Counted from the stretch's first letter, positions 2,837-29,280 are shown. The stretch: DNA of 64,000 nt from Candidatus Bathyarchaeota archaeon (GCA_963733055.1 CAVTBR010000002.1:32001-96000), one strand, 5' to 3'. The notes: generated by a model from the sequence alone, not told the origin. Program-made: numbers and translations.

Positions 2837-4415
2837 TTATTCTGGTGGAATTTGCGCCCACACTTTGGTTAGGTCTATTCCGTGAGCTTTGTTGTAGAAG
2901 TAGGAGGCCGCGAAAATTGCTATGGGTATCAGTACGACGACTACGATGATCACTTGCGCTTGAGAGCTGAATGAGGCTACTGCTGGGTTCGTCACTGCGT
3001 TAAATCCCAAGTAACCAAAGAGGATCGCGCCTATTACCCCAAGAAGGGATATGACCGGAAATCCGCCTATTCGCGCTTTCCATGATGCGGCCTCGAAAAT
3101 GGCTTTCCTGCGGAACGGAAGAATGATCGCGCCCAAGGCCGTTAGGAACCAAACGACCGCGAACAGAAAGATCCCGTTTACTTGAGTCGTGATGAATGAG
3201 ACGAAGAAGTACAGGTACATTGGAACGAGAGTGCAAGCTGAGGCAACGATGATCGCGACATAAGGCGTGTGGAATCTGTCGCTGACGTTGGCTAGTGCAG
3301 TGGGGACAGTTCTGTCGAATGCCCAAGACATGAAAAGTCGACTTATGAATACGATCCCGAGCCAGCCCCAACCAATGTTACCTACGAACAACCCGCCTAC
3401 AATTATCCAGAGCAGCACGCTGCTTGGGTTGAATAATGTGACAAAGACCGTCGGAACAATTGAAAACCCTCCCCCTACCGTTAGCGTCCAGGCTTCAAGG
3501 AATGAGATTCCTACCAAGTTGTCAAAAATGTATGTAAGACCGAACCAGACCAGGATCGATACGATCTCTGCGAGAACCAATCCGATTAGAAGAGATCGGC
3601 GCAGGATTCTTGATCTCGCTACCCACCATCTGCATGACCGGGTAGGGTCCAATGCTAACGAATAGCAGCGGAACAACGGCGCCGAGGGCAACGAGCGACG
3701 TACCCGGCATGTAACCCTTTGCCGCCGCATCCGAGAACACCTTAGCAACGCCTCCAGGGAAGTATTGGGCGTAGGCTGCGCTAAAGTCAGCGGGTGAATG
3801 AATCATGAATGTCACGACAGTTAGAAGCAGTACGACTGCTCCGTATGCAAAAAACGCAAGTACAATTGCCCTGAACACTCTCCCTCCCGCTATGATCGCC
3901 GCTGTTCCAATAATCAGAATGACCACACTGATTGCGAAAAGGGTGATTGGGGAAGAAGTAGTCCAGGGGGTAATGAAGTTGCCCAGGTTTGTAATGTTTG
4001 GGTCATTTAATACCGAACCTGCAAACGACAATTGGGTTCCTGACTCTGCGAACGCCCAATATGAGTTGGAACCAGCTGATGTCAGAGATGCAATGAAGAA
4101 CAGGAAGCTGGCGACAAAACCAAGAGGCCCAGCAATTGATCGAGAGATGAAAACGTAATCCCCTCCCGATCGAGGCATTACCACGGTCACCTGCCAATAG
4201 AGCAAGACGATAACGATGGCGATAACAGCCCACACGCCCAATGCCGCGTAATAGTTAACGTTCTGATAGTAGTCGGGCGTGAGCCAGAAGATCCCGGCCC
4301 AGCTTGTCAACCAAGGAAAGTAAATGATGCTCCAAACGAAGACGTCAAGTGAGGAAAGCTGCCGTACTAGTCCAGTAGCTTCACGAACAAACAGAGTCGG
4401 ATGGGCTTTAGCCAA
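2837..4415 (-). CDS. APC-family amino acid/amine permease, split by a +1 frameshift near 3603
   Basis: LFVREATGLVR and MPRSGGDY motifs. SEIKNP continues as RRSLLIGL in the other frame. Paralog of 8563..10254. Confidence 0.8.
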
Positions 4416-4480
4416 ACCATTAACCTAGGCGTTTAGCTGAGGTTATAACAGATATAAGACCTACCATAACCCTCGATCGG

Positions 4481-5236
4481 ATGGGTGAGTCAAGCGTGAT
4501 CTTTGAAGGGATTTCCATTGTGGACGCCCATTGCCACATTGGCTATTTTGGGGGATGGGCGAATGTAGGAATTACAGCTGAGGAATTGATTGCGGTAAAT
4601 AAGAAATTCAATGTAACTCACTCGATCGTTTTCACGTTACCGAACAGCCTTTCGATTGAGGCTTCGGAGAAGTACCCGAATGATATTTCCAGTTACGTTT
4701 GGCTTAACCCGTTTGAGGGAGAGAAGGCCGTAAACGAGCTGCGCACCTCTGTGAAGGAGCATGGTTGCAAGGGGGTAAAATTACATCCCTTGTTTCAGGC
4801 ATTCATCGCGGACGACCCGATTGTTTACCCGATTATGGACGAGGCTAGACGGCTGAAGGTGCCTGTAGCAATTCATTCCGGTCACCCGCCCTTCTCCCTC
4901 CCCTGGAGTATTGGAGAATTAGCGGAAGTCTACCCGGACGTTACTATTGTGATGCTCCACATGGGCCACGGTCACGGACTCTACATACGAGCCGCAATCA
5001 ATACAGCAAAAAGATACCCGAACATCGTACTGGAAACATCAGGCATGCCAATGCACACCAAAATCAAAGAAGCCATGGACACCGTTGGAGATGATCGCGT
5101 GATGTATGGATCAGATATGCCATTTCATCATCCTTCAGTCGAACTGCAACGCGTCAAGATGGCCGGGCTAACCGAGAGTCAGCTCAGAAGGCTACTGCAC
5201 GACAATGCAGCTGAGAAATTGGGACTGACCGTATAA
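4481..5236 (+). CDS. Amidohydrolase family (Amidohydro_2) metal-dependent hydrolase
   Basis: DAHCH, GVKLHP, HSG, HMG and YGSDMP motifs. Confidence 0.9.
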   Translation: MGESSVIFEGISIVDAHCHIGYFGGWANVGITAEELIAVNKKFNVTHSIVFTLPNSLSIEASEKYPNDISSYVWLNPFEGEKAVNELRTSVKEHGCKGVKLHPLFQAFIADDPIVYPIMDEARRLKVPVAIHSGHPPFSLPWSIGELAEVYPDVTIVMLHMGHGHGLYIRAAINTAKRYPNIVLETSGMPMHTKIKEAMDTVGDDRVMYGSDMPFHHPSVELQRVKMAGLTESQLRRLLHDNAAEKLGLTV

Positions 5237-5238
5237 AT

Positions 5239-6594
5239 TTACTCGAAAACTATCTTCCCCGGGTTCATTATGTTGTCTGGGTCTAGCGATTTCTTGATTC
5301 GTCGCATTAGTACGAGAAGGTTCTTGTCATCGAATTCATACGGGTAGAATTCTCTTTTCAGGAACCCTATTCCGTGAACCGCTGAAACGGTAGCGCCCTC
5401 TTCCGCGGCGAATTTGAGCATCTCCGCTGTCGCCGCGTTCTTCACCTTCAATCCTGTTTCACTGTTGTCGAATGCGTACATCACCCACAGTTGAGTGGGA
5501 ATCAGATTGAACCCGCCCCCATGCCATTTCATTCCGTGCTTGAGCGCAATCGAGCGCCACTCATAGTACACTGAAATGATTTGGTCGAGCGGTAACGTGA
5601 CGCTTTCCATTCCGTAGACTTGATTATCGGGTAGGTTTGCCGGAAAGGCTTCGTGATGGCTCTTCCAAAAATCCGTTACAGCTTGCTTGCCTGCGTCAAC
5701 TCCCCCATTCGATTCACAAACTGAAAGAGCCCTGTCCCTTTGGGCTGCTACCACCTCTTTGACTCCAGCGAAACCGAGAACTAGCATCCCGAAGGAGGTA
5801 ACCTCTGACCCAGAGGTCTTTGGCGCCACTTTGACTACATCTACACAGTGATGAATCCCCAAACGGAGCCCCAATCGTCCGAGTTCCATCGATGCCTTCG
5901 AAGCCTGCTTGAAATCGTCGAACACGAGAATTCGTGTTTCTGTGGCTTCCGGCATCGGGAACGTTTTCAATGTTGCCTGAGTAACCACTCCAAGAACTCC
6001 CTCAGCCGCGACAAATAAGTGGGTCAAGTTGAGCGCGGAGGTTGGTCGGTCCAACGGTCGCCCCGTACTAACAATTGTTCCATCGGCCAACACGACACGG
6101 AGGCGGAGAACTCTCTGCCTCATCGACCCCAGATTACTGTACCATCCGTCGCCGCCTATCTGGTCTGTTGAGATTGAGCCTCCAATCGAAACGACCGGCC
6201 CACTTCCCGGATCAAAACCCAGCGTAAGACCTCGCTTGTTGAGTTCATCTTCAATTGCCAGAATATTCGCGCCGGTTTCGGCCGTAACATGGTAGTTCCG
6301 CTCATCGATCTCCAGGATTTTATTCATCGCCGTGAGATCGATCATCATGCCGCCCTGGAGCGCTACTGCTCCGCCGACGAATCCTGTCCCTGCCCCTCTG
6401 GGGGTGATGGGTATCTTCTCACGGGCAGCGAGCTTCACCAGTTCCGATACTTGCTCTTCTGAAGTAGGGATCACTACGACATCCGGTGGGAAACCGTGAT
6501 CGAGGTCAATGAAATCCGTCGAGTGATCTTGGAAATAGTATGCTCTTTCGGAGTAAGTAGTCCTCACGTTCTTTGGCCCGACGATGGCTTTCAC
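5239..6594 (-). CDS. FAD-linked oxidoreductase, GlcD/D-lactate dehydrogenase (VAO) family
   Basis: PRGAGTG, EGVLGVVT, HGIG and LDPDNIMNPGK motifs. The start may lie slightly upstream across another +1 indel. Confidence 0.85.
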   Translation of the reverse strand: MKAIVGPKNVRTTYSERAYYFQDHSTDFIDLDHGFPPDVVVIPTSEEQVSELVKLAAREKIPITPRGAGTGFVGGAVALQGGMMIDLTAMNKILEIDERNYHVTAETGANILAIEDELNKRGLTLGFDPGSGPVVSIGGSISTDQIGGDGWYSNLGSMRQRVLRLRVVLADGTIVSTGRPLDRPTSALNLTHLFVAAEGVLGVVTQATLKTFPMPEATETRILVFDDFKQASKASMELGRLGLRLGIHHCVDVVKVAPKTSGSEVTSFGMLVLGFAGVKEVVAAQRDRALSVCESNGGVDAGKQAVTDFWKSHHEAFPANLPDNQVYGMESVTLPLDQIISVYYEWRSIALKHGMKWHGGGFNLIPTQLWVMYAFDNSETGLKVKNAATAEMLKFAAEEGATVSAVHGIGFLKREFYPYEFDDKNLLVLMRRIKKSLDPDNIMNPGKIVFE

Positions 6595-6889
6595 TTCATC
6601 CAGCCAACCTAGCCGGGGGCAACTTCGGCTGCCTTGCTTGACGGCACCTGACTTTGATAGTATTTCACGTCACAATCGTGGTGCACTAAGCCCTTCACCG
6701 CGGAGTAATCTGGGCGTTCATCTTTCCTGATTTCTTTACCACAATGAGCACAACGTGACAACTCTCGAGCCTCTCTGTTCACGTAGAGCTAGATTTTCGG
6801 CCTTAATTCCTTTCGTCAGACTATCAGTAATCGGTCGCTGGCTAGAAGAAAGGCCATAAGAAGCACCAAGCCATTGCGAGCGGCTTGCT

Positions 6890-7291
6890 ATGGTACGTTG
6901 CTCGACGATCATCAGATTTCTGACTTGGCTGGTAAACAGGACGCCAGAAGCAAAGGATAAAGCGGCTAACTGGAGCAAAACAATTCAGTTTACGCTAACG
7001 GGGGAAGACCCATTCTACGTGACATTCATTGACAAAAGGATGAGTTACCACCCAGGCACAGCGGGGGCTCCTGACCTAGAGTTCGTTTCCAAGTCCAAAG
7101 ATTTTTTCGACATAATAACTGGAAAGGCAAGGTTTGATCAAGGCTTCTCGAATGGAACATACACGATACATGGATCAATCACGGATGCTGTTCGATTAAT
7201 GAGGGTCGCCGAGCTGGCATTTGAAGCGCATCCGTTGCTCGACAGAATAGTGCGGGCCGCGATGGGAATTACCCCCCAACGGCATTCTTGA
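6890..7291 (+). CDS. SCP2 sterol-binding domain protein
   Basis: IQF...PDL...GSITDA pattern; paralog of 28882..29280. Confidence 0.7.
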   Translation: MVRCSTIIRFLTWLVNRTPEAKDKAANWSKTIQFTLTGEDPFYVTFIDKRMSYHPGTAGAPDLEFVSKSKDFFDIITGKARFDQGFSNGTYTIHGSITDAVRLMRVAELAFEAHPLLDRIVRAAMGITPQRHS

Positions 7292-7358
7292 AGGGGCGGA
7301 TAAGTCATAAATACGCACCTCACGAGCCTACCCCGTTTTCAATAATCTTCCAAATTAG

Positions 7359-8472
7359 GTGAATTCACTGCTCCTCTTTGCTCCTTTCGTGATTGAACTT
7401 CCTCCCGAGGTGCGCAAAGCAATGGCGAAGCAAGTCATCCATCCTGATCTCGATGAAGCGTTCTTTGACCTCTACGACAGCGTAGTGCGTAAGACCAGTA
7501 AGATCTACGGGACTGCGAAATGACCTATTCATTATCCCAGGAGAAGGAATGGTCGCACTTGACGCAGCAGTCGCCAACCTAGTCGAGAAGGGAGACCGAG
7601 TTCTTTCCATCTCTTCGGGATTCTATGGTGATGGACTAAGAGAGTTTGCGGTGAACTATGGTGGCGACGCGACCCTATTGCGTAGCGAGGATGGCGATAT
7701 TGTCGAACCAGCCGATATCGAGAGGCAACTCGAAAAGGATCCACAGATCAAGGTTGCAACCTTTGTTCATGTCGAGACACCTTGCGGAACACTTGGCCCA
7801 TTGGCTGAGGTTGGGAAGATTTGTGATGACCATGGAGTCATCTTGATAGCCGACACCATAACATCCGTGGGCGGCGTCCCAGTGAACGCAGATCGGAACC
7901 ATGTCGATGTTGTCCTTGGGGCCAGCCAAAAGTGCTTCAGTGCACCACCCGGCCTAGCAATGATTTCCGTGAGCCCGAGGGCATGGGAAAAGATTGAGAG
8001 GCGAAAGGAGAAGGTCCCCTCATTCTATCTCGATCTTTTGCCCTGGAAGAATATGTGGCTTAAGAAACGCGAGTTCCCCTACACACAGTCTGTATCCGAT
8101 ATCTTCGCCCTCAACGCAGGTTTGGACCTCATTCTTAAGGAAGGATTGAATCGGGTTTATGCGAGGCATCGGAAGGTAGCCGATTTCGTGCGCGATTCTT
8201 GTCGAGACATTGGGCTTGAAATCTTCGCAAAACGGAGAGAAATCTCTTCCAAAACTGTGACGGCCGTTAAGGTGCCCGCGGGTATAGATGAGAAACAATT
8301 GAGAATGGTGATGGCAAAGCGTCACGGAGTCATCATATCCCACTCCTGGGGGAAGACCGCGGGCAAAGTTGTTCTTCTCGGTCACACCGGGTACAATGCC
8401 CAAGAGAAGAAGGCTCGGATCGCCATGAGCGCACTTTCAAAGTCTTTGAAAAGTCTAGGTTTCAAAAAGTAA
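7359..8472 (+). CDS. Class V aminotransferase (pyridoxamine:pyruvate aminotransferase-like), +1 frameshift near 7514
   Basis: GTG 7359 gives MNSLLLFAP...HPDLDEAFFDLY...IYGT, which joins RNDLFIIPGEGMVALDAA. HVETP and SQK (Schiff-base Lys) motifs present. Confidence 0.8.
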
Positions 8473-8562
8473 ATTCGCATTGTATGAGACTTGTTACGAC
8501 TGCCATTCAATTTCCGGTTTGCCGTTGGACGGCACGGGAGGATCGCGCGAAATGCGCCGAAT

Positions 8563-10254
8563 TTAGACAGGCGGCATTTCGGCGAAGCTTAGGGATAGGT
8601 CAATGCCCTGTTTCTTTCGTATGCCCCATGCGACTAAGTAGACTAGGATGCAGGCGAGGAAGATGCCGAAGACGAATTCTATCGAACTTCCAGTTGGAAC
8701 AGAGACGTATCCCAATGCAGGGCCTGCGACGAATATCCATCCTATGAATAGGTTCACGATTAGGGAAAGTACGCCCATGATCGCGAGAACCGAGACGCCT
8801 CCAACCTTGTACTTTGCGGCTGGCGAAGCTTCGAAGATTTGCTTGTTTCGGTAGGGGAACACGATGGCTGTTACGCTGATGAGTACGTATGCGATTTGAG
8901 TGGCTAGGCCTGCGGTGGAGAAGTAGCTTGTTAGCGCGGTGTAGTAGATTATGAGGTAGAGGAATATCTCGCAACCTATTGCGGAAATTACTAATGCTAC
9001 GAGCGGTGAACGCGTTTTCTGGGTTACGTAGGCGATCTTTTCCGGCAATACTCTATCCATCGCAGCCGCAAACATGATTCTTGTCGATGCAAAGTAAACA
9101 ATCAGGATTACTTGGAAAAGTCCGAACGTGAGGCCTACCAAGATTAGCGTCCACACTACCGGGCTACTACTCAGTGATGCCACGAAGGCCGGGTAGTAGG
9201 GATTGTAGAAGAATGCGAGGGGGTTGGTTGAAGGGTCGAAGTTGTAGTATAGCGTATAAAATGAGTCCAGAAATTGCAAGCCCACAACAGCTTCAAGCAG
9301 ATACCACAAGGCGAGAAGGAAGAGTGCGAACAGAAGGCTTGACCCAACCTGTATCCACACCTGCACCTTGAGGCTCTCGGCGCTCTTTATTTCCGATAGA
9401 TTGTAGATGCTCCAGAACGCGTATCCAAATGACACCCAGATTACGCCTAAGAGAGCCAACGTTCCCGGCCAACTGAATGCGGGAGTGGTAAGGTTGGCTG
9501 TTTGGATAATGTATTGGTAGTAACCGCCGGCACTTTGGACCGCGTTCGTTACAGTTTGGTTGCCCTGCGCGTGTACTAATGGCATCGTGAATGAGTTGAA
9601 GTTCTGAACAAACGCAGCGTGGGTCGTAGTCGCTAAAACCAAAAGAATCGTCGCGGCAGAGACAACCGATCCAGCGAACAGGATGTATTGCAGACGGACG
9701 TAGAACCGCATGCCCAGTGCAGCGATTACAAGGCCAAGCAGAATGACGACGGTCGTTATGGCAAAGTTCGCAGTATTGTACCCAAAGTTTGCGGCAAGGG
9801 TGGCCGCTAGATTCGCGAAGTAGGAGTTCGACATTCCGAGGAGAGCAAAGTATGGTTGAAAGCCGACCGAGGCTATGAGCATGCCCAAGAAACTTGCGAA
9901 ATACCACTGCCAGATTGTCCACGCTGAAAATGTTGATCCGAACCCTATGATTGGATGAAGTACCCGACTCTGCCAGACATAATCTCCTCCTGAACGAGGC
10001 ATCGCTGATGAGAGCATGGAGGTCGCCAAATAGAACGGAATGGCGATGATCGCCATGAGTAGGATGGCCAAGCCAACGTTTGCGCCCAAGAAACTGGATG
10101 AATAGGCTATGGAGTAAAGGGTCACCCAAGTGAAGGTGCAAAGGCCGATGGCCATGAAGTTGTAGATGAACGCCTGATGAGGCGCCATCTCACGGACTAA
10201 CCCGGAGGTCTTTCTAACGAAAATCTGTTTTGACGATGCCATTTGGAAGAGCAC
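8563..10254 (-). CDS. APC-family amino acid/amine permease
   Basis: IFVRKTSGLVRE and MPRSGGDY motifs, many TM helices. Confidence 0.9.
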   Translation of the reverse strand: MLFQMASSKQIFVRKTSGLVREMAPHQAFIYNFMAIGLCTFTWVTLYSIAYSSSFLGANVGLAILLMAIIAIPFYLATSMLSSAMPRSGGDYVWQSRVLHPIIGFGSTFSAWTIWQWYFASFLGMLIASVGFQPYFALLGMSNSYFANLAATLAANFGYNTANFAITTVVILLGLVIAALGMRFYVRLQYILFAGSVVSAATILLVLATTTHAAFVQNFNSFTMPLVHAQGNQTVTNAVQSAGGYYQYIIQTANLTTPAFSWPGTLALLGVIWVSFGYAFWSIYNLSEIKSAESLKVQVWIQVGSSLLFALFLLALWYLLEAVVGLQFLDSFYTLYYNFDPSTNPLAFFYNPYYPAFVASLSSSPVVWTLILVGLTFGLFQVILIVYFASTRIMFAAAMDRVLPEKIAYVTQKTRSPLVALVISAIGCEIFLYLIIYYTALTSYFSTAGLATQIAYVLISVTAIVFPYRNKQIFEASPAAKYKVGGVSVLAIMGVLSLIVNLFIGWIFVAGPALGYVSVPTGSSIEFVFGIFLACILVYLVAWGIRKKQGIDLSLSFAEMPPV

Positions 10255-10317
10255 GCAACGAAAGGATGGTAGTGACCCGGTTTGTATTTAAAACTGACCG
10301 TATTCTGGAAACGAAAC

Positions 10318-11349
10318 TCATGCGGAGATGAACTGATAGGATTTACAACCCTTCTCATCCAGGTTGACGAGGACGCCGCGAAGTATTCCTTCTCCGTACT
10401 CACTTCCCGGGTTTACGCAGACCGTGCGACCGATTTTCGCTACATTCTTGGATTCATGAATATGCCCATGCAAACCGAGCACAGGTTGTGACTTTTCGAT
10501 GGCAGCGCGAATCGCAGTTGACCCTGCCCCGAAGAAAACCAATCCGCCCCCGTCCATCATTGGTTTCGGAGGAAAGACGGAAGCGTCCAATTTCACACAT
10601 GTGTCCAAACCAGAGTCGACTGGTGGGCAGTGGAAGTTGAAGACTGAGTCCGCTGGATTGGTGAGCATTGAAATCTTCTTCTCAACTCTAGTCGCAATCT
10701 CTTCCTCAGTCAAGTCTCGTGGGCAGTTCCATGGTGTGATGTTCGCAAACCCCGCAGAAATCATCTCATGTTTCGAATCGAGCATGACAACTTTGTCTTC
10801 GGGTTGAACGATCTTCTTACTCTTCGCCAATTCTTCATCGACGAAAAGCTCGTCATCGTTACCGGTATTGACGTAAACGGGGCAGGTCGCGTTCGAATCG
10901 GCGTATTCAACCCATTCCCTCAATCTCGTTCGAGTGATATCCTCAAGTATCCTTTCAGATTCTTGCTTGTTCTGAGCGAGATTCTCCATCTCGCCTTTCG
11001 ACGCTACGTAAATATACGAACCGGTTCTTCGAACAATTTCCTCAAACCGGGCCAAATCCTCCTTGCTCTTCATGTCGTGCATTTGCTTCTGGAATTCAGC
11101 ATGATAGGACCCGTCAGCGTCTGCGATGACCGTGACGACGGCCTTGCCCGTAAGATCTCCGCCCATAACGATCACGTTCGCCTTGTAGAACTGACCGCCG
11201 CGGATGAACTTCTTCCATACACTATCGCTGCCATGCACATCGGAAGCGAAGAGAATTCGCGTGAAAGCCAAACCGAACACTACCGCACATCGAAACATTC
11301 GGCCGAATATAATTCTTGAACCATGAATTAATAAGCAAAATAACCGCAT
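10318..11349 (-). CDS. Icc-like metallophosphoesterase (true start probably about 25 codons downstream)
   Basis: SDVHG, GGD, GNDD and HGHIHE calcineurin-like motifs. Confidence 0.85.
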   Translation of the reverse strand: MRLFCLLIHGSRIIFGRMFRCAVVFGLAFTRILFASDVHGSDSVWKKFIRGGQFYKANVIVMGGDLTGKAVVTVIADADGSYHAEFQKQMHDMKSKEDLARFEEIVRRTGSYIYVASKGEMENLAQNKQESERILEDITRTRLREWVEYADSNATCPVYVNTGNDDELFVDEELAKSKKIVQPEDKVVMLDSKHEMISAGFANITPWNCPRDLTEEEIATRVEKKISMLTNPADSVFNFHCPPVDSGLDTCVKLDASVFPPKPMMDGGGLVFFGAGSTAIRAAIEKSQPVLGLHGHIHESKNVAKIGRTVCVNPGSEYGEGILRGVLVNLDEKGCKSYQFISA

Positions 11350-18322: not shown

Positions 18323-18323
18323 T

Positions 18324-20899: not shown

Positions 20900-20919
20900 A
20901 AAACTTTCCGCCTCGTGAG

Positions 20920-21381
20920 TTAACCGAACTTGTTTATGCTCTCCGAACCCTTGACCTCGGCGGTCCAATGGAATTCCTCGCCTCGATTGACCTTCTCCTG
21001 CTCGTCCTCAGCCGCTTTCACGGCTTCGCTTCCTCCATCTACCCAGGTCGACCAACCCGCAAGCCAGATACACAATGAAACTGCCTCTTGGACTTCCCTG
21101 GGCGTTGCTCCTAGGCGCACGGCTTTTCGAGCGTGGCTTCGGCCCTTTTCACCACGACCAGTTGCCACCTCAATCGCGGTGATGATTAGCTCCTTGTATT
21201 TCTCGGGCACAGCACCCTCGACGCCCTTTGGGGGTAACGTTGCTTTTCGAATCTTGATGAAACCTTCAACGATTTCCGGACTATACTTGTCCATGTGTTC
21301 GAAGACGGGGTGCATTCGTCCGAACTTTTCGAGAATGTACTTCTTCGTCTCTTCGTTCAACGCAGATCGATACCGTATCAA
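20920..21381 (-). CDS. Carboxymuconolactone decarboxylase/AhpD family protein
   Basis: KYKELI..A...HARKAVRLGATPREV pattern; no CxxC. Confidence 0.8.
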   Translation of the reverse strand: MIRYRSALNEETKKYILEKFGRMHPVFEHMDKYSPEIVEGFIKIRKATLPPKGVEGAVPEKYKELIITAIEVATGRGEKGRSHARKAVRLGATPREVQEAVSLCIWLAGWSTWVDGGSEAVKAAEDEQEKVNRGEEFHWTAEVKGSESINKFG

Positions 21382-21479
21382 CGTTCAATAACTTAGGCTT
21401 TCGCAGTAATCGTTTCTATGAACGCATCATATGCGGTGGGCTTAAATAATCTCAGTCAACGCGGACACTGTGAGTCCTT

Positions 21480-22478
21480 ATGGTTTCATTCGAAGCTGCG
21501 ATCAAGGAAGCGAAACTAGCAATCGAACACTGTTATTCAGTCAAGAAAGGGGAGAACGTAGCGATTCTGACCGACCAAGATCATATGGTTGAAGCAAAAG
21601 CCTTGGCCTCCGTAGCTGGGCAAGTGGGGGCAAACGTAGTACTTCTCGACGCCTCTGCCTACGTTCAAGCCGGGATGCTCATCGCGGGCATACCAGAACC
21701 CCCAACCCACATCTCCTCCCTGATGGAGAAGACTCAGGTCTTCATTATCAAAACCGAAATGGATTTCGCACACAGGTTCGCACACACCGAAGCCGCGAGA
21801 ATTGTCGAACGCAACAAGGGAAGAATCGCTTCGGTTGAGGAAGACATGGGCACCTGGGGTATCGAGTACGATTACCTAGTTGAGACAAAGGAACGTACAG
21901 CCAAACTTGGGGCAATCACGGGTAAGGCCGACAGGATTCGGGTAACCTCGGGCAAGGGCACAGATGTGACGTTCTCAATAAAGAACCGCCCAGCCCTTGT
22001 AATCGTGCCGCAACGTGTGCCCGGCGACATAATGTCACCCCTCCCACTATGGGGCGAGGTTGCACATTCGATAATCGAAGATACGGGAAATGGGACCGTG
22101 GTCGCGGACGGCATTGCAAACGCAGTCGCGAACAACGGACTCAAAGAACCAATCACGTACAAGGTCAAGAATGGACGCGCATACGACTATCAAGGAGGCG
22201 ACGAGGCAAAACGATGGGAAGCGATCATAAAGTCCGCGGACGAGAACGCGAATATTCTATGTGAGTTTGCTGTCGGAACAGGCAGGAGGGAACGATGGAA
22301 CACCGTCTCGGAGAAAGGTGCCCTCGGAACCATGCACTTAGCTCTAGGTGAAAATGCTGGACCGTATCCGGGCGGAAAGAGCCACAGCAAAGTGCACTTG
22401 GACGTGACGATTCGATTTCCAACCATCGAAGCCGACGGCAAGGCCATAGTGGAGAAAGGCGTTTTCAAACTAGACTAG
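21480..22478 (+). CDS. M29-like (aminopeptidase T/NicX superfamily) metallo-hydrolase
   Basis: GENVAI, GTDVTF, GEV, EFAVG, HLALG and HLD motifs. Confidence 0.75.
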   Translation: MVSFEAAIKEAKLAIEHCYSVKKGENVAILTDQDHMVEAKALASVAGQVGANVVLLDASAYVQAGMLIAGIPEPPTHISSLMEKTQVFIIKTEMDFAHRFAHTEAARIVERNKGRIASVEEDMGTWGIEYDYLVETKERTAKLGAITGKADRIRVTSGKGTDVTFSIKNRPALVIVPQRVPGDIMSPLPLWGEVAHSIIEDTGNGTVVADGIANAVANNGLKEPITYKVKNGRAYDYQGGDEAKRWEAIIKSADENANILCEFAVGTGRRERWNTVSEKGALGTMHLALGENAGPYPGGKSHSKVHLDVTIRFPTIEADGKAIVEKGVFKLD

Positions 22479-22589
22479 CCACTCACATTTCTTGAGGGCA
22501 ATAGCTTCTTTCGTTAACCACGCGTGGTCGATTCCGCGTTAACGCCACACTTTACTATGCCAAACCGCGTGTCCCATTTGGTGACTTAG

Positions 22590-23537
22590 GTGAAGGTTGA
22601 GGATGTCAGGACGGTTTCCGTGATCGGTGCGGGACTCATGGGACACGGTATCGCCCAAGTGTTTGCCCTAGCCGGATACGATGTCATGCTTAGAGACATT
22701 AAACAAGAAATTCTGGAAACCGCGCTTGACAGAGTCAAAAATAACCTTCAGAAAATGTCAACAGCCGGTCTCGTTCGCGAACAAGACATTACTGGGGTCC
22801 TCTCAAGGTTGAAGACCACGGTGGAAATGGAGAAGGCAGTAGGGAACGCCGATTTCGTTATAGAGGCGGCGACTGAGAATATTGAACTCAAGAAACAGAT
22901 TTTCAAGGAACTTGACAAACTCAGCATTGAGCGAACAATTCTCGCCACGAATACTTCCGGGTTGCCAATAGCTGAGGTTGCAGCGGCGACCAGCCGGCCT
23001 GGGAAGGTTGTTGGGACACACTTCTGGAATCCACCGTACCTACTGCGTGCGGTGGAAGTTGTCAAAGGAGCTGGAACGACTGACGAAACCGTTAACGTGA
23101 CTCGTGACCTGCTCTCGAAGGTGGGGAAGAAACCCGTCGTCGTAAACAAGGACGTCCCCGGCCAGATAGGGATTCGAATCCTTTACGCAATGATCCGAGA
23201 GGCTTCATCTCTGGTAGAGAAAGGGGTAGCTTCGCCTGAGGATATAGACATGGTTGTGAAAGAAGCGCTCGGAACGCGCCTCCCCGTTGTCGGCGTTTTG
23301 GAATTGGCCGACCTGTCCGGTGTCGACCTCGTCCTCATGGTATCAAAACGTTTGTTCAAGGATTTGGACAACGATCCTCAACCATCCGCCTTCCTTGAAA
23401 CCATGGTAGCCCAAGGTAAGACCGGGATCAAGAGTGGAAAAGGATTCTACAACTGGACCCCCGACAGCATCGCCTCCACAATCAAGAAACGGGACGAGCA
23501 CCTTCTGAAGATTCTGCAAGAGAAAAAGGGGTCGTGA
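22590..23537 (+). CDS. 3-hydroxyacyl-CoA dehydrogenase family protein
   Basis: GAGLMG, NTS, HFWNPP and GIKSGKGFY motifs. Confidence 0.9.
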   Translation: MKVEDVRTVSVIGAGLMGHGIAQVFALAGYDVMLRDIKQEILETALDRVKNNLQKMSTAGLVREQDITGVLSRLKTTVEMEKAVGNADFVIEAATENIELKKQIFKELDKLSIERTILATNTSGLPIAEVAAATSRPGKVVGTHFWNPPYLLRAVEVVKGAGTTDETVNVTRDLLSKVGKKPVVVNKDVPGQIGIRILYAMIREASSLVEKGVASPEDIDMVVKEALGTRLPVVGVLELADLSGVDLVLMVSKRLFKDLDNDPQPSAFLETMVAQGKTGIKSGKGFYNWTPDSIASTIKKRDEHLLKILQEKKGS

Positions 23538-23618
23538 ACGAACCCTCGTTTCCATCGCCGAGAAACCCGGACTAACGCTTAATTACGGTCCGAACGTCTT
23601 GAACGCTTCGAACCCCGA

Positions 23619-25052
23619 TTGTATAAGTTATTCATTAACGGAGAAAACGTGGACGCCGGCAACGCAGACTCCTACGAAATCCGCAACCCAGCAAATTCCG
23701 AGCTCGTCGATACGGTTGCGAAGGGGAACGCCAGCGACGCTAAGAAAGCCATCGACGCCGCGCAAGACGCATACGAAAAGTGGTCAGAAGCAGCACCCAC
23801 GCAAGCAACCGGGGTCCTCAGCAAGGCAGCACAGTTAGTTAGAGCGAAGGAACAGGAACTCGCGACTCTCCTAACAAAGGAACAAGGCAAGACCTTACCT
23901 GAATCCCTTGGAGAGATTAGGTTCTTCGCGAAAACCCTTGAATACTATTCTGGAGCGAAGATAACTGGCTCGTACATTACACTGACCGACAAAGTATCAG
24001 CCGAAATCGTGAAAGAACCAGTAGGGGTTGTCGGCGGCATCGTCCCATGGAATAACCCTGTCATGTTGATGGGAGCCAAGGTGGTATCGTCAATCAAATC
24101 GGGTGATGCAATAGTAATCAAACCCGCCAGCACTACTCCCCTCACGACCATCAGGTGTGCGCAGATTCTACTCGAGGCAGGAGTACCCAAAGGTGTGTTC
24201 AACGTCGTCCCAGGACCCGGAGGAATCGTTGGAGAGGAAATTCTTCGAAACCCGAAGGTAAGGAAAGTATCCTTCACAGGCGAGAGCGAGACGGGGAAAC
24301 ATGTGATGGAGGTAGCGGCTCGTGACTTGAAGAGGGTCACGTTAGAACTGGGTGGAAGCAACCCCGTAATTGTGGCGGATGATGCTGACATTGAGGCGGC
24401 TGTCGACAACACCCTGTTCGGCCGCTTCCGCAACTGCGGGCAAGGATGCATGTGCATCAAGCGCGCGTACGTGTTCGAGAAGATCGCGGACCAGTTCACC
24501 AAACAACTGGTCGAGAAGGTTAACGGGATTAAGGTTGGTAACGGGCTTGTTCAGGGCGTGAGCATGGGCCCCATACACTCCGCGTCCCAGCGGGAAGCGT
24601 TCGAAGCACAAGTGAAAGACGGAATCAGTAAAGGGGCTAAGATTCTCACAGGAGGCAAACGGCCAGCGGGTTCCGAGTTTGACAAAGGCTTCTTCTACCT
24701 ACCAACTCTGCTCTAGAACGCCGATCCAACCTCGAAGGTTCTTACGGAGGAAGTGTTCGGACCTGCCCTCCCGATTGCTCGCGTCAAGGATATGGATGAG
24801 GCGGTGAGGCTTGGTAATGATTCGATCTATGGTTTAGGCGCGCACATTTGGACGAGGGACATCCAGAAGGCTCTCAAGGCGTCTAAGAAATTGAAAGCGG
24901 GCACGATACTCGTGAACACCGCATACGGTGCGGGTGGCTGGGAGATCGAGGTCCCTATGGGAGGCTTCAAACAGAGCGGCATCGGCCGCGAATACGGAAT
25001 CGAAGGCATGGGTCAATACCAAGAAACAAAAACAATCGTTTATGGAACCTAA
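23619..25052 (+). CDS. NAD(P)-dependent aldehyde dehydrogenase interrupted by an in-frame TAG at 24714-24716
   Basis: PWN, FTG, LELGG, GQGC ... FYLPTLL*NADPTSKVLTEEVFGP ... GGFKQSGIGRE, all in one frame. Confidence 0.85.
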
Positions 25053-25070
25053 AGAAGAGAGGATTAAGGA

Positions 25071-25955
25071 ATGGTCTTCAAACCCACCGCCTTCTTAGAG
25101 CCCACAACTGTTGATGAAGCGTGTGATCTTCTCTTACAATACGGTAAGCATGCGAGAATCCTGGCGGGCGGGACGGCGATCTACGAGCTAGCGAAAAGAG
25201 GTTTGGCGGATGAAGTCAGACAACTCATCAGCCTCAGAAGTGTTCCCGTCAAGTATGTGCGGCGAGATGAACTGGGCCTACACGTCGGGGCTACCACTAC
25301 TCTGGCAGAGTTGATGGCAGCTCCAGAAGTACTCTCCGACGCTTCGTTGCGGGCGGTGTCCGAGGCTCTTCACGAAATCAGGCCAATGCAGGTTCAGTCG
25401 GTTGCAACCGTAGGAGGTGAAATCTGCACATCACTCCCATTATTGGATTTGCCCCCGGCTCTACTGGCCGTTGATGCGGCTGTTGTGATTCAAGGGACGA
25501 AGGGCCGAAGAACCATTCCCCTCAGCGAATTCTTAGTGGATTTCTTCCTCAACGCGCTGGGGAAAGGGGAGCTTATGGTTGAAGCGCTCATTCCAAAGCA
25601 ACCCGAACGTTCCAACTCAGCATTTCTGAAGTTCGGGCGAACTGCCTACGACTTCAACCTAGTCAACGTTGCATGCCGTCTGGCGTTCGCTCGGAACGGA
25701 TCCTGTTCGGATGCAAGAATCTTCCTTGGAGGTGTTGGCAGAGTGCCCTTACGCGCGGTGAAATCTGAAGAAAAGTTGAAGGGAGAGCGAGTTGACGAGC
25801 AGTCCATTTCCAGAGCCGTTGACTCGCTGGAAAAGTTCAGGGCGATTCCGCAAATTCATGGAGATTCCGAATACAAACGAGACGTAGCCCTCGTACTCAT
25901 GCGCGAATGCCTCAAGCTGGTGGCGGAACCCGCGAAGGTGGCGGTTCATCCATGA
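25071..25955 (+). CDS. Xanthine dehydrogenase-family FAD subunit (CoxM-like)
   Basis: ILAGGT and ATVGG motifs. Confidence 0.88.
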   Translation: MVFKPTAFLEPTTVDEACDLLLQYGKHARILAGGTAIYELAKRGLADEVRQLISLRSVPVKYVRRDELGLHVGATTTLAELMAAPEVLSDASLRAVSEALHEIRPMQVQSVATVGGEICTSLPLLDLPPALLAVDAAVVIQGTKGRRTIPLSEFLVDFFLNALGKGELMVEALIPKQPERSNSAFLKFGRTAYDFNLVNVACRLAFARNGSCSDARIFLGGVGRVPLRAVKSEEKLKGERVDEQSISRAVDSLEKFRAIPQIHGDSEYKRDVALVLMRECLKLVAEPAKVAVHP

Positions 25956-26419
25956 AAGAGACAGTTTCATTGCGAGTGAACGGTAGAGTGCACGAGTTGA
26001 AACTGGGAGCCTACGCGTTGCTGTCTGACGTGATCCGCGAAGACCTCGGAATGAAAGGGACGAAGCGGGGATGCGATTTCGGTGGCTGCGGAGCATGTAC
26101 CGTTCTCTTGGACGGCCAACCAATTTATTCGTGCATGATGCCCGCTCGTCACGCGGAAGGGCATGAGATAACGACGGTTGAGGGACTGGCTGAGGGTGGA
26201 AAACTTTCTCGAGTCCAGGAGTCTTTCGTCAAGAACATGGGTTTCCAGTGTGGGTACTGCACGCCCGGAATAATCATGTCGGCCACGGCCCTGCTCAAAC
26301 GAAATCCACATCCATCAGAGGACGATATCCGCGAGGCATTAGCCGGAAACTTGTGCAGGTGCACTGGGTACACGAGCATTTTCAAATCCATTATGGAAGC
26401 CGCTAAAATGCAGGCCTGA
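25952..26419 (+). CDS. Xanthine dehydrogenase-family 2x[2Fe-2S] subunit (CoxS-like)
   Basis: GCDFGGCGAC, QCGYCTPG and NLCRCTGY motifs; ATGA overlap with the FAD subunit. Confidence 0.92.
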   Translation: MKETVSLRVNGRVHELKLGAYALLSDVIREDLGMKGTKRGCDFGGCGACTVLLDGQPIYSCMMPARHAEGHEITTVEGLAEGGKLSRVQESFVKNMGFQCGYCTPGIIMSATALLKRNPHPSEDDIREALAGNLCRCTGYTSIFKSIMEAAKMQA

Positions 26420-26428: not shown

Positions 26429-28816
26429 TTAGTCTACTAGAATTTCTTTCTCCGCAGTCTTCTTTTTGATCGCTTTCAGAATCCGTTCGCCAGTCACAGG
26501 GAGCGACCGAAATCTAATGCCCGTCGAGTTGTAGATTGCGCTGGTTACTGCAGGTGCCGTTGGTGTGATTGGAGCTTCTCCGCATCCCTTGGCGCCAAAG
26601 GGGCCTTCTTCGAAGTGGTTTTCGAGAATTATCGATTGGATTGGCACGTAGTCCATGGAGGTCCAGATTTTGTAGTCTTTGAGGTCGCCGTTGATCACGA
26701 GCCCGTCTTGGATGATGAGTTCCTCTGGAATTGTGGTGCTGACGCCCATGATGATGCCGCCCTCGTTTTGGCCGGAGACGTTCATGGGGTTAATGACCTG
26801 GCCCACATCCAATACACCGATAATATTGAGTAGCTTGATTTGCCCGGTTTCTTTGTTGACGGCAAGGTCGACGACCTGTACGGCTGGTGTGTAGTAGGCG
26901 ACGGCTCGATCGGTGGAACACTGCCCAGTCTCGGGATCGATCTCGCCAGTTTCAGGATACCAAACCGCCCTTGATGCGAACTCTCCGATTCCTTCCACAA
27001 AACCGCCGCCCATGGGGCCAGGCCTGAACAAGTCCTGTACCCTGACCTCTTTGTCAGGTGATGCTTTGCTGTACACCTTACCGTCTGCTAGCTCCAAATT
27101 GTCGACGGGAGAGTTCAGTTTGCGGGACGCGACGTTGAAAATCTGCGCCTTGACTTCCCGACACGCGAGACTAACCGCCTTTCCGAGTTGTGATGTCTGT
27201 CTGCTGCCACTAGCCCCTGGCCCTACGGGGGCGTTTGAGGAATCGGATTCTCGGATGACGATGTTTTCCATGGGGAGCTTGAATTCTTCCGCGGCGATCT
27301 GTGCCAATCCCGTTATGATCCCCTCTCCGGGGTCGGCTACGACTGTGGATATTTCTACTGTGTTGTCTTCGTGGTATTTTGCGTAGGCCATGCTGGGGAA
27401 GCTTATGTCACACATTTCCTGAGCCACAGCGATGCCGCGCCCGAACGCCCAGTTGTTTTCGAGTTTTGGAATTGGAATCTTCTTCGCTTCCTGTTGTGCG
27501 TTTTCTATGCATTCCTGCAGGGTGAATTTCCGCATTCTTTCGCCCATCGCGTTTTTTGCGTCGGTTTTCAACATATTCCCGAGTCGAAGCTCGATTGGGT
27601 CGATCTTGAGTTTGGAGGCGATTATGTCCATTTGAGATTCTATGGCGAAGTGTGTTTGCGGTGTGCCGAAACCTCTGAAAGCACCCCCCTGAACTTGGTT
27701 GGTATAGACTCGGAAAACGTCTAGCTTGAAGTTTGGAATATCGTAGACGCAGACAGATGCGTAGACGCAGTCTCGGACGGCTACGTTGCCGGCGAGTGAG
27801 TATGCGCCTCCATTGTAAATGGCCTCAATCTCCCTCGCTACGATACGCCCATCTGATTTCACACCGTCCTTGATCCTGATGACCGACGGATGCCTAATCG
27901 ATGTGGCTTCGAACACTTCTTCCCGAGTGAAGATGACTTTGACTGGCCTACGAGTTTTCAGGGTTAAACAGGCGCATATGAGCTCCGAGTGAGTCTGGCC
28001 TTTGTTTCCGAACCCTCCGCCCACATACGCTGGGACGATTACTCGGATTCTAGATTGGGGTATCCCTAGGCCGTCGCTAAGCTCCTTCCGGGCGCGGTAA
28101 ACGTTCTGCCCCGCTGTCCATACAACCAGCGTCCCATCTGGTTCGGCTGAGGCGATGGTAGCGATTGGTTCAATGTGCATGTGCTGTACAGCGTGAGTTC
28201 GAAACGTATTCTCCACAATGAGATCGGCTTCTTTGAAACCCTGATCAACGTCCCCCTGCCTCACCTTGAATCGATTGCTCACGTTTGGTCTAGTAGGATC
28301 GAGTGCAGCGCGGTAAATTTGGGATTGAAAACGTTTGTAGTTAGGAAGGTCGGGATGAATTATTACGGACGGGTTTTCCTTCACCGCCTCAACTGGGTCA
28401 AAGATTGGGTCCAATTCTTTGTATCTTACTTCGATTAACTCGGCGGCTTCTCTAGCCAGTTCCCGTGTCTCCGCGGCAACGGCTGCGATTGGTTCCCCAA
28501 CGTATCGGACTCTGCCCTGGGCAAGTGTGGGCGTATCATAGAGGCCCCGCCCTCTTCGCCCGGTGGGGACATCTTCGCTAGTGATTACTGCGAGAACACC
28601 CGGTAGAGCCTTAGCTCGGGATTTGTCGATGGATATGATTTCTGCGTGAGGAAGATTGCTGCGTTTAATCGCGCCGTGCAACATTCGCGGTAATTCCATG
28701 TCGTAAACGTAAATGGCGCTCCCTGTGACTACCTCCTCAGCCCCTAAGCGGGGTAGCGGTTTTCCGATCGCCCTGTACTTGTCTGAAGGCTCTTCGTTCG
28801 CCATTGTAAACTGCAA
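26429..28816 (-). CDS. Xanthine dehydrogenase-family molybdopterin subunit
   Basis: VGGGFG, AFRGFG and GAKGCGE motifs. Confidence 0.92.
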   Translation of the reverse strand: MQFTMANEEPSDKYRAIGKPLPRLGAEEVVTGSAIYVYDMELPRMLHGAIKRSNLPHAEIISIDKSRAKALPGVLAVITSEDVPTGRRGRGLYDTPTLAQGRVRYVGEPIAAVAAETRELAREAAELIEVRYKELDPIFDPVEAVKENPSVIIHPDLPNYKRFQSQIYRAALDPTRPNVSNRFKVRQGDVDQGFKEADLIVENTFRTHAVQHMHIEPIATIASAEPDGTLVVWTAGQNVYRARKELSDGLGIPQSRIRVIVPAYVGGGFGNKGQTHSELICACLTLKTRRPVKVIFTREEVFEATSIRHPSVIRIKDGVKSDGRIVAREIEAIYNGGAYSLAGNVAVRDCVYASVCVYDIPNFKLDVFRVYTNQVQGGAFRGFGTPQTHFAIESQMDIIASKLKIDPIELRLGNMLKTDAKNAMGERMRKFTLQECIENAQQEAKKIPIPKLENNWAFGRGIAVAQEMCDISFPSMAYAKYHEDNTVEISTVVADPGEGIITGLAQIAAEEFKLPMENIVIRESDSSNAPVGPGASGSRQTSQLGKAVSLACREVKAQIFNVASRKLNSPVDNLELADGKVYSKASPDKEVRVQDLFRPGPMGGGFVEGIGEFASRAVWYPETGEIDPETGQCSTDRAVAYYTPAVQVVDLAVNKETGQIKLLNIIGVLDVGQVINPMNVSGQNEGGIIMGVSTTIPEELIIQDGLVINGDLKDYKIWTSMDYVPIQSIILENHFEEGPFGAKGCGEAPITPTAPAVTSAIYNSTGIRFRSLPVTGERILKAIKKKTAEKEILVD

Positions 28817-28881
28817 GGGTTGGCGAGATTCGTCTTTAATCTTTATCTACGCGCTAGCGAGCCAAAGACCCTTGGTACTAA

Positions 28882-29280
28882 ATGACCGGAAAGTGCGGTC
28901 GATCAATTCAAGCCTTATCAAAATTCATCGGACCATCGAACGAGACCAAGGCAATTCTCGACGATTGGAATTCAGTCATCCAATTCGACTTGATCGAAGA
29001 AGACCCATTCTATCTCCAAATATCAAACGCTGCCGCAACCTTCCACAACGGCAAGAACGAGAACCCGGATGTTGTATTATCGGGCCGATCAGACGCGTTC
29101 TTCGACGTCATAACCGGAAGACTCGACCCAGATGAAGCATACGTTATGAAGAAGTACGACGTGAAAGGATCGGTCGTTGATGCGATGAAGTTCCGACGAA
29201 TCAGCGAACTAACCGAGGCTAAACACAAGACCGCATTCTCACTGTTGAAGACGGTCGGAAAAATCGCGGTCAGAAAGTAA
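28882..29280 (+). CDS. SCP2 sterol-binding domain protein
   Basis: IQF, PDVVL, LDPDEAY...KGSVVDAMKF pattern. Confidence 0.8.
   Translation: MTGKCGRSIQALSKFIGPSNETKAILDDWNSVIQFDLIEEDPFYLQISNAAATFHNGKNENPDVVLSGRSDAFFDVITGRLDPDEAYVMKKYDVKGSVVDAMKFRRISELTEAKHKTAFSLLKTVGKIAVRK

Follow-up and report, generated by a model that had tools for sequence, protein, structure and literature searches.

In Mesorhizobium loti MAFF303099, vitamin B6 is broken down along a route comprising pyridoxamine-pyruvate aminotransferase (PPAT), pyridoxal 4-dehydrogenase, 4-pyridoxolactonase, 4-pyridoxate dehydrogenase, FHMPC dehydrogenase, HMPDC decarboxylase, MHPC oxygenase and AAMS hydrolase. To our knowledge only two bacterial routes of B6 breakdown have been described, both of which depend on oxygenases. 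Nicotinate, another pyridine compound, is fermented by Eubacterium barkeri using nicotinate dehydrogenase, 6-hydroxynicotinate reductase and enamidase. Here we consider positions 2837-29280 of a 64,000 nucleotide (nt) stretch of DNA (G000:C2:32001-96000; the whole stretch is hereafter termed the window) from a soil archaeon (Candidatus Bathyarchaeota), the genome of which comprises 2.88 Mb in 3 contigs and is 96 % complete with 5.3 % contamination; by their names, its closest protein relatives belong to Bathyarchaeia. A sequence-only reading had presented this region as a vitamin B6 catabolic island, possibly independent of oxygen (O2). The island itself finds support in B6 markers, in the co-clustering of its genes elsewhere and in phylogeny; its independence of O2 is a matter of inference, and three of the genes that had been listed are broken. 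We regard it as fairly probable that the region is a rearranged and partly decayed copy of a widespread cluster for the use of B6 vitamers, chiefly pyridoxamine and pyridoxal, with later enzymes unlike those of both known aerobic pathways; the cluster also occurs in numerous uncultured anaerobes and certain soil bacteria. The link to B6 and the existence of a conserved cluster appear well supported by sequence comparison, and we infer the order of the steps, the role of the XDH-family enzyme (ring hydroxylase or aldehyde oxidase) and independence of O2.

As in pathway I of M. loti, a PPAT-family transaminase with a Glu at the phosphate site is encoded in the window, and clusters related to it share with this pathway, and with the PPAT locus of Rhizobium daejeonense, genes resembling 4-pyridoxolactonase and FHMPC dehydrogenase as well as a BMP-type 'B6' binding protein. 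Unlike pathway I, no GMC oxidase, MHPCO flavin monooxygenase or alpha/beta hydrolase was found in the window by Pfam analysis, and the clusters have aldehyde:ferredoxin oxidoreductase (AOR) and ferredoxin, XDH-family, UbiD or Amidohydro_2, luciferase-like (LLM) or PreA-like, NicX-like, cupin and carboxymuconolactone-decarboxylase-family (CMD) proteins. The likeness to E. barkeri is one of logic only, in that a pyridine carboxylate is acted on without O2 by a hydroxylase containing molybdenum, by a reductase of the ring and by a metallohydrolase; in contrast to that system, no XDH is present where a cluster has two AORs, and ring hydroxylation perhaps lies outside the route. S-components akin to the HmpT/PdxU2 ECF transporter of Lactobacillus brevis (PDB 4hzu) stand beside the transaminase in Bathyarchaeia and Clostridia, whereas the window is without an ECF module and has APC-type permeases.

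The gene types named in the sequence-only reading, namely AOR, aldehyde dehydrogenase (ALDH), XDH, LLM, FAD oxidoreductase, amidohydrolase, M29-like protein, phosphoesterase and APC permease, were all found by Pfam (33 open reading frames, ORFs) and NCBIfam (27 ORFs) scans of the window. It had also remarked on the lack of a thiolase or crotonase near the 3-hydroxyacyl-CoA-dehydrogenase-family (HCDH) gene and of a GMC oxidase or flavin monooxygenase, and none of these occurs among the 33 ORFs scanned with Pfam. A cupin, a CMD protein and two SCP2 genes are added to the inventory here.

Aminotransferases and their gene neighbourhood

Two class V aminotransferases (PF00266) are encoded on the plus strand of the region, namely AT2 (11316-12521), which is intact and probably starts near position 11355, as does a relative with 94 % identity, and AT1 (7357-8472; listed ORF 7549-8472), which is frameshifted. 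The best solved relative of AT2 in the PDB is M. loti PPAT (2z9u; 229 bits, against 181 bits for the best AGXT chain), with an alignment that spans residues 25-393. As had been read from the sequence, QGEGVLGLEAA of AT2 aligns on HGEPVLGLEAA of PPAT, the motifs NEA, S.LSI.D and FPFTP are common to both proteins in this alignment, and AT1 reads PGEGMVALDAA. Glu86 of AT2 falls on the phosphate-site Glu of PPAT, which we take to be Glu68, and the AGXT chains have GTG at this point. Yoshikane et al. are said to have found in 2008 that the Glu of PPAT keeps out the phosphate of pyridoxal 5'-phosphate (PLP). The Schiff-base Lys, presumably Lys197 in PPAT, is likewise retained, with SQK of AT2 aligned on PNK of 2z9u, and Q214 and K215 are invariant across the aminotransferase relatives. 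The PPAT family (NF046070) is the top NCBIfam match of AT2 with 334 bits, compared to 212 bits for the next family, BhcA.

The phosphate-site Glu is a constant feature of this family. All 18 full-length relatives in the alignment carry GE[GA], and the Glu is present in 79/79 loci of the AT2-anchored set (80 loci, one genome per species) that have this stretch on the contig, with one locus being cut there. It also occurs in the PGAP-named PPAT of R. daejeonense (GEP) and in Peptoclostridium, and the two other class V paralogs of the source genome read GTG or TGT. In a quick IQ-TREE phylogeny of 91 rows, from which the partial rows L010, L016 and L025 were dropped, the Glu-bearing family is split from these two GTG-type paralogs with an SH-like approximate likelihood ratio test (SH-aLRT) value of 98. 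A clade with an SH-aLRT value of 97 unites AT2 with its archaeal, Spirochaetota and Aerophobetes relatives, the named PPAT, and genes of Actinomycetota and Chloroflexota, and AT1 falls with Clostridial genes in the other clade. The aminotransferases do not group with serine/alanine-glyoxylate enzymes in this tree, in agreement with the PPAT assignment made earlier.

Substrate carboxylates are presumably bound in PPAT by Arg336 and Arg345. In AT1 the second of these is replaced by Leu (LLGHTGY), a residue common to six of the twelve aligned relatives (LLGH(T/M)GY), and it is therefore taken as the mark of a sub-clade rather than of decay. Members of this sub-clade (relatives P0124-P0137) read LLGHMGY and have TASPT in place of TPGPT near the N-terminus. 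The sequences of the sub-clade hint at a co-substrate other than a 2-oxo acid.

Neighbourhood conservation was assessed with two independent anchors, AT2 and the M29-like protein encoded at 21480-22478, the latter giving 80 metagenome loci of which 37 extend over at least 8 kb, so that both sets together amount to 160 related loci. The genes of the island co-cluster across other genomes and phyla with either anchor, as the sequence-only reading had anticipated. When the window proteins were compared by tblastn to the AT2-anchored loci, relatives of the cupin were found in nine of the 80, of the M29-like protein and the XDH 2Fe-2S subunit in seven each, of the Amidohydro_2 protein and HCDH in five each, of the AOR, LLM and ALDH in four each and of the CMD protein in two; no relatives of the FAD oxidase, SCP2, APC permease, phosphoesterase or GNAT proteins were found in this set. 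Lineages with such clusters include Bathyarchaeia, Pelearchaeum, Spirochaetota, Aerophobetes and Actinomycetota. The 80 M29-anchored loci contain the cupin (61), the XDH 2Fe-2S (35), FAD (28) and molybdopterin (28) subunits, LLM (28), HCDH (23), CMD (22), AT2 (17), AOR (14), the first SCP2 protein (9) and Amidohydro_2 (8), and the 37 longer ones the cupin (32), the XDH molybdopterin subunit (24), LLM (20), HCDH (17), AT2 (15), AOR (14) and CMD (14). Among 22 control proteins from the remainder of the window, 19 were without a match in the related loci; the remaining matches come from paralog families, to which a second AOR, a second LLM and an ABC ATPase belong.

Two forms of the cluster can be distinguished. 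The ferredoxin form comprises AOR, aminotransferase, PreA-like protein, UbiD, HCDH, M29-like protein, cupin and AOR, often together with XDH and BMP genes, and the F420 form a transporter, Amidohydro_2, aminotransferase, CMD, cupin, M29-like protein, LLM, XDH, HCDH and metallo-beta-lactamase (MBL). In bacteria the transaminase lies within a co-directional run of ferredoxin, AOR, aminotransferase, PreA-like, UbiD, HCDH, M29-like, cupin and AOR genes. For example, an Aerophobetes locus (L035) encodes an MBL, a URO-D-like protein, a regulator, ferredoxin, AOR, aminotransferase, a PreA-like DHO_dh/4Fe-4S protein, UbiD, HCDH, M29-like protein, cupin and a second AOR. A Spirochaetota locus (L032) is much alike, with the addition of Amidohydro_2, a BMP ABC system and an Fe-ADH. 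Archaeal counterparts include L006 of Bathyarchaeia (URO-D-like, MBL, LLM, aminotransferase, ECF S, T and A components, M29-like, cupin, CMD and three XDH subunits) and L008 of Pelearchaeum (MBL, HCDH, LLM, CMD, M29-like, LLM, cupin, Amidohydro_2 and aminotransferase), and in the Actinomycetota L027 combines cupin, M29-like, LLM, BMP ABC, aminotransferase and XDH genes. The close relatives L089 and L090, with 72-89 % identity to the window, carry in this order LLM, AOR, in part a permease, cupin, CMD, M29-like, HCDH and ALDH genes. URO-D-family proteins with a weak likeness to the methyltransferases MtaA/CmuA recur at cluster edges (L035:1236-2381, L006:6170-7363); these could serve in decarboxylation or methyl transfer.

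Four families with B6 labels recur in these clusters. Twenty BMP binding proteins were scanned (19 of the 21 found and that of L032, with one partial protein left out), and 20/20 match only NF047927, 'putative B6 ABC transporter substrate-binding protein' (234-403 bits), with one of the 20 above the cut-off of 400. In the Rhizobium PPAT locus, the BMP protein matches the same family with 450 bits. All six cluster MBLs scanned, four partial ones having been left out, have 4-pyridoxolactonase (NF047925) as top match (205-358 bits), and those of L048 and L149 exceed the cut-off of 325. FHMPC dehydrogenase (NF042925) is the top match in 14/16 of the cluster HCDHs scanned, which represent 16 of 28 in total (best score 436 bits, cut-off 500), the two exceptions being the closest relatives of the window protein. 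Furthermore, the ECF S-component that adjoins the aminotransferase has 4hzu chain S as its only PDB match, with 74 bits in Bathyarchaeia (L006) and 31.5 bits in Clostridia (L078). Pyridoxamine has been recovered from this protein, HmpT/PdxU2 (4hzu_S), by extraction (PMC4860826).

Core enzymes and a candidate route

The core of the cluster is an M29/NicX-superfamily metalloenzyme (21480-22478, plus strand). Its match to the M29 aminopeptidase family (PF02073) reaches 25.6 bits, below the cut-off of 27, while scores of 31-61 bits are reached by its relatives, with matches confined to the C-terminal half. No match to the single sequence was found in the PDB at E-values up to 1. An AlphaFold model built from seven relatives (pLDDT 85, pTM 0.83) is predicted to resemble most closely NicX, the 2,5-dihydroxypyridine 5,6-dioxygenase of Pseudomonas putida, which is the top Foldseek match (7cn3/7cup; TM 0.80, E 1.4e-23), followed by the M29 peptidases PepS, AmpS and AmpT (TM 0.61-0.72). 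A profile of the family likewise retrieves NicX first (E 3.6e-5) and then PepS (E 0.011). NicX/Hpo uses an HX52HXD iron triad of the 2-His-1-carboxylate type (PMC3831237). Like NicX/Hpo (7cn3, 7cup), the M29-like protein is of similar length and retains the C-terminal HxD (H306, D308). Unlike NicX, to which it shows 18-19 % identity, it has an invariant Glu262 on His265, the first His of the triad, so that the full iron triad is lacking; an additional invariant His286 without a counterpart in NicX is shared with M29 peptidases, and the peptidase-type metal ligands are retained. A further difference from NicX is that the gene occurs together with those for tungsten-type AORs and ferredoxins in likely anaerobes. 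The protein may represent a family of pyridine-ring enzymes with a metal site nearer to that of hydrolases, and its cleavage could be hydrolytic or O2-dependent. The independence of O2 proposed earlier would have to be reconciled with the O2 dependence of NicX, the nearest enzyme in both fold and profile. Two further M29/NicX-like paralogs are encoded in the source genome (G000:C1:713480-714427 and G000:C3:611422-612402), with 125 and 90 bits to the profile, respectively.

In the genomes of the class that were sampled, close relatives of the M29-like protein are seldom found (best 201 bits), as are those of AT2. This rarity would fit an accessory island that was probably acquired by transfer.

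A small cupin (20540-20968, minus strand; PF07883), for which PDB matches are generic only, is the constant partner of the M29-like gene. It adjoins the CMD gene (20920-21381, minus strand; PF02627); a CMD gene is also found in the Rhizobium PPAT locus. Downstream of the M29-like gene are the HCDH-family NAD enzyme (22590-23537, plus strand; PF02737 and PF00725) and an ALDH (23619-25052, plus strand; PF00171) with an in-frame TAG that leaves an ORF of 23619-24716. These are followed by the FAD (25071-25955, plus strand; PF00941/PF03450), 2Fe-2S (25907-26419, plus strand; PF01799) and molybdopterin (26429-28816, minus strand; PF02738, PF20256, PF01315) subunits of an XDH-family enzyme, the last of which reaches no NCBIfam equivalog cut-off. 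L096 encodes relatives of the FAD and 2Fe-2S subunits with 64-71 % identity and of the molybdopterin subunit with 76 %. The sequence-only reading had assigned ring hydroxylation to this enzyme. Its subunits are present as described, but a part as obligatory ring hydroxylase was down-weighted, as the two-AOR clusters L032 and L035 are without XDH; for the same reason it may oxidise aldehydes. The second SCP2-fold protein (28882-29280, plus strand; PF02036) adjoins the XDH genes, and its relatives also stand beside XDH in L096, L097, L099, L103, L117 and L137.

The AOR (18551-20389, minus strand; AFOR_N 253 bits, AFOR_C 458 bits) has relatives with 76-88 % identity in L090, L089, L112 and L111, and relatives with approximately 50 % identity adjoin the aminotransferase in L032, L035, L118, L121 and L124. 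A candidate reductase of the LLM type (12645-13568, plus strand) scores 187.7 bits against TIGR03619, above the curated cut-off of 166.9, and would by family be of the F420 type; its PDB matches are generic only, and relatives with 65-76 % identity occur in L090, L114, L112, L111, L100, L107 and L089. The source genome has three copies of CofE, and CofG was not found in it. The Amidohydro_2 protein (4481-5236, plus strand; PF04909, 115 bits), a candidate non-oxidative decarboxylase or hydrolase, has weak PDB matches to the 5-carboxyvanillate decarboxylases LigW/LigW2, and its relatives occur in 5/80 AT2-anchored and 8/80 M29-anchored loci. Next to it is a GlcD-like FAD-linked oxidase/dehydrogenase (5239-6594, minus strand; PF01565 and PF02913; glcD 233 bits, below the cut-off), with relatives within the clusters L114 (73 %) and L096 (53 %), and then the first SCP2-fold small protein (6890-7291, plus strand; PF02036). 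The APC-family permease at 8563-10254 (minus strand; PF13520) is a candidate substrate importer, a relative of which (70 %) adjoins the Amidohydro_2 and M29-like genes in L103. It is followed by a weakly recognised metallophosphoesterase-like protein (10318-11349, minus strand; PF12850 24.2 bits, below the cut-off of 27). A dephosphorylation step, which had been ascribed to this gene, was dropped, since no phosphoesterase relative is found in the 160 related loci, and both the metallophosphoesterase and the GNAT protein, equally without a relative in any of these loci, were rejected as pathway members.

A possible route may be drawn from these enzymes. Pyridoxamine would be imported by a permease, of the APC type in the window and an HmpT/PdxU2-type ECF or 'B6'-type BMP ABC transporter in the relatives. 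AT2, with Glu86 blocking the PLP phosphate pocket, would yield pyridoxal, with pyruvate or a different 2-oxo acid as acceptor of the amino group. The aldehyde may then be oxidised to 4-pyridoxate by the AOR, and elsewhere by XDH, by ALDH, or by a dehydrogenase together with 4-pyridoxolactonase, after which the 5-hydroxymethyl group could become a carboxylate through the HCDH-type enzyme together with another enzyme that oxidises aldehydes. The carboxyls next to the ring hydroxyl would be stripped by Amidohydro_2, or by UbiD in the bacterial form, and the ring or a ring-derived enone may be reduced by the F420-type LLM, for which a PreA-like Fe-S flavoprotein would stand in bacteria without F420. 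Finally the NicX-like metalloenzyme, with the cupin and CMD proteins, would open and trim the ring.

Alternative readings and implications

Several observations weigh against the use of B6 as proposed here. The substrate assignment is made by homology and gene context. Vitamin B6 is scarce in nature, and a cluster of more than ten genes devoted to it would be surprising. Although PPAT is the top family for both aminotransferases, neither AT2 (334 bits) nor AT1 (289 bits) reaches its equivalog cut-off of 600, and AT2, which retains the second carboxylate Arg (RIGHMGY), has Tyr354 in place of Arg336 of PPAT. A search of 120 further genomes from the class gave no close relatives of AT2, with 41 % as the highest identity. 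The family NF047927 is itself labelled only 'putative', and in the source genome there is no match to it and only an 86-bit lactonase-like gene, located elsewhere. The HCDH of the window, which had been tied to FHMPC dehydrogenase, scores higher as 3-hydroxybutyryl-CoA dehydrogenase (HBD) both in NCBIfam (274 vs 243 bits, with an FHMPC cut-off of 500) and in the PDB (225 vs 194 bits for FHMPC dehydrogenase 4om8); for the window protein itself the tie is weak. The transaminase is present in only 15/37 of the long M29-anchored loci, and the core may thus act on a B6-derived or related pyridine, not on pyridoxamine. Lastly, the cluster is split by a mobile element and has three broken genes (ALDH, AT1 and one permease), and that no genes for PLP synthesis were found fits salvage as well as breakdown.

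In a different explanation, the permease and AT2 would bring in pyridoxamine and turn it into pyridoxal, to be phosphorylated to PLP, in an organism without B6 synthesis or PdxH, and the neighbouring genes for redox enzymes, decarboxylase and hydrolase would belong to a separate pathway. No match to PdxS, PdxT, PdxJ, PdxH or the pyridoxal kinase TIGR00687 was found in the 96 % complete source genome, and as no genes for B6 synthesis were found, the import of pyridoxamine and its conversion to pyridoxal would be useful in itself. PdxS occurs in just 23/121 sampled genomes of the class and in 16/75 of those of high quality, and B6 auxotrophy may be common in Bathyarchaeia. In keeping with salvage, an ECF S-component is the neighbour, with no catabolic genes, in 23/73 AT2-anchored loci without the M29-like gene, mostly of Clostridia, and the transaminase gene of Peptoclostridium acidaminophilum stands alone. 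The bacterial clusters, however, hold the transaminase within a co-directional catabolic run, and a 4-pyridoxolactonase at equivalog score and FHMPC-dehydrogenase-like genes lead away from PLP. The only candidates for a kinase in the source genome are two Phos_pyr_kin matches of 29-31 bits, and in the tree AT2 falls with PPAT and the cluster-borne genes, outside the Clostridial clade. Salvage alone is therefore considered unlikely, if still worth attention. The S-component of the HmpT/PdxU2 type is the commonest neighbour in the 73 loci without the M29-like gene (e.g. L078:8678-9229), and the Clostridial stand-alone transaminase and ECF S-component look like a pyridoxamine salvage pair. A Cof-type HAD phosphatase adjoins the stand-alone Glu-type transaminase in four of the loci L028-L085, mostly of Clostridia.

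The cluster might also degrade another N-heterocycle, for instance a product of purines, a 3-hydroxypyridine or an acid resembling nicotinate, with the PPAT-like gene and the B6 transporters being side entries or mislabelled. Its most constant genes are indeed those for the M29/NicX-like protein, the cupin and XDH, with the transaminase less frequent, and the combination of an XDH-type hydroxylase with NicX-type cleavage (PMC3831237) follows the known logic of nicotinate and hydroxypyridine breakdown. Class V transaminases, cupins and metallohydrolases are also employed in purine breakdown, and there is a PucG match of 175 bits, as well as weak cupin matches to ureidoglycine aminohydrolase. 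A PucG-type transaminase with a ureidoglycine cupin was nevertheless ranked low, as the Glu is present in the transaminase, which falls with PPAT in the tree. That four different B6-labelled families recur across the clusters speaks against another heterocycle. In the 2008 work of Yoshikane et al. the Glu in the phosphate pocket reportedly leaves few substrates beyond pyridoxal and pyridoxamine, which was counted on the same side. Since B6 is itself a 3-hydroxypyridine, this explanation, to which we assign a rather small likelihood, mostly merges downstream with the use of B6. If common oxidoreductase families had merely come together by chance, in a region that is decaying and ridden by mobile elements, this would account for the three broken genes and the mobile element, and the AOR, LLM and ABC families have paralogs that give generic matches. 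Against this, relatives preserve both the order of the genes and their identity (up to 76-91 %), the same set of genes is found in distant phyla and 19/22 control proteins are without a match, which makes the absence of any pathway highly improbable.

If the B6 cluster is taken as the preferred reading, it would be a more tentative step, with a chance that we put at somewhat under even, to propose a third, O2-free route of B6 breakdown that would be widespread among anaerobes not yet in culture (Bathyarchaeia, Nitrososphaerota, Aerophobetes, Spirochaetota and others), with an F420-linked version in Actinomycetota. Such a route would run from a cofactor-free transaminase to pyridoxal, and via tungsten-type AORs to acids. 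Decarboxylation by UbiD or Amidohydro_2 and reduction of the ring by an F420 or Fe-S flavoprotein would follow, and the ring would be opened with water by a NicX-like enzyme in which hydrolase chemistry was either retained or regained. No description of such a pathway was found in the literature searched, where most subscription journals lay outside coverage. Were it to exist, the first steps could at the same time provide for B6 salvage in Bathyarchaeia, as most of these are apparently without PLP synthase. A conserved cluster across phyla in which B6-specific entry enzymes and transporters are joined to AOR, UbiD, XDH, F420 or Fe-S reductases and a NicX-like enzyme would account for the turnover of vitamin B6 in anoxic soils, peat and sediments. 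It would also give functions to several large unnamed families, namely the class V transaminases with the Glu, the M29 proteins resembling NicX and the cupins that accompany them. Vitamin cross-feeding would likewise be affected, in that organisms which import B6 may also consume it, and PdxS is encoded by so few of the sampled Bathyarchaeia genomes.

Disruptions, mobile element and flanking genes

Three genes of the region are disrupted. AT1 has a 1-nt frameshift at approximately 7518-7521, with its first ~55 codons in another frame (~7357-7523) that ends in ...KIYGTAK* at a stop at 7521-7523; the next frame goes on with NDLFIIPGEGM, and full-length relatives (360-384 amino acids) read GT(R/K)NDLF through this point. 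The TAG within the ALDH gene is located at 24714-24716, and the same phase is open onward to 25052; PF00171 is covered at profile positions 6-355 of 461, and the relatives in L090 and L092 (86 % identity) have Glu at the TAG position. A second APC-type permease (2837-4415, minus strand) is split in two frames, an N-terminal half at 3522-4415 and a C-terminal half at 2837-3748, the membrane-protein translations of which meet after ...GSEIKNPA. Neither half has a Pfam match, and relatives of both halves lie between the AOR and cupin genes in L089. The sequence suggests that this permease is probably broken, so that of two APC permeases reported earlier the one at 8563-10254 is borne out by PF13520 and the other is in two pieces.

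A mobile element at 14355-18046 separates the LLM and AOR genes, which adjoin in the close relatives L089 and L090. This 3.7 kb element is flanked by inverted repeats of 52 nt (14355-14406 and 17995-18046; 83 % complementary) and contains an IS6-type transposase (15735-16901, minus strand; NF033587, PF13610). Small unnamed ORFs within it are located at 14535-14903, 15283-15720 and 17199-17939, and a 64-nt direct repeat is present at its edges, at 14344 and 18042.

In one public DNA run, in which 18 % of the sampled words were found, short contigs aligned to 5200-25100 gave no bridge at the AT1 frameshift and nothing at the ALDH stop, and no RNA run with such words was found. Each of the three disruptions may thus be a real mutation or an assembly error. 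With the element cutting the cluster and three genes (ALDH, AT1 and one permease) broken, function in this genome may be only partial, perhaps mainly in uptake and transamination.

Beyond the region, two unnamed ORFs (29568-30371 and 30544-31248) share at their 3' ends a 77-nt direct repeat with 74 % identity (30276-30352 and 31060-31136), and are probably tandem paralogs with a common C-terminal membrane segment, as judged from their sequences. Approximately 3 kb at 31250-34300 has no ORF of more than 100 amino acids and no Rfam family at gathering score, and contains a 29-nt direct repeat (32995 and 33544). The following stretch (34321-42092) opens with a second AOR (34321-36249) and closes with a second LLM (41100-42092), both of which match the related clusters only at the level of paralogs (30-43 %); it also encodes an ABC-2 exporter pair, an aldo/keto reductase, a zinc alcohol dehydrogenase and a MOSC protein.

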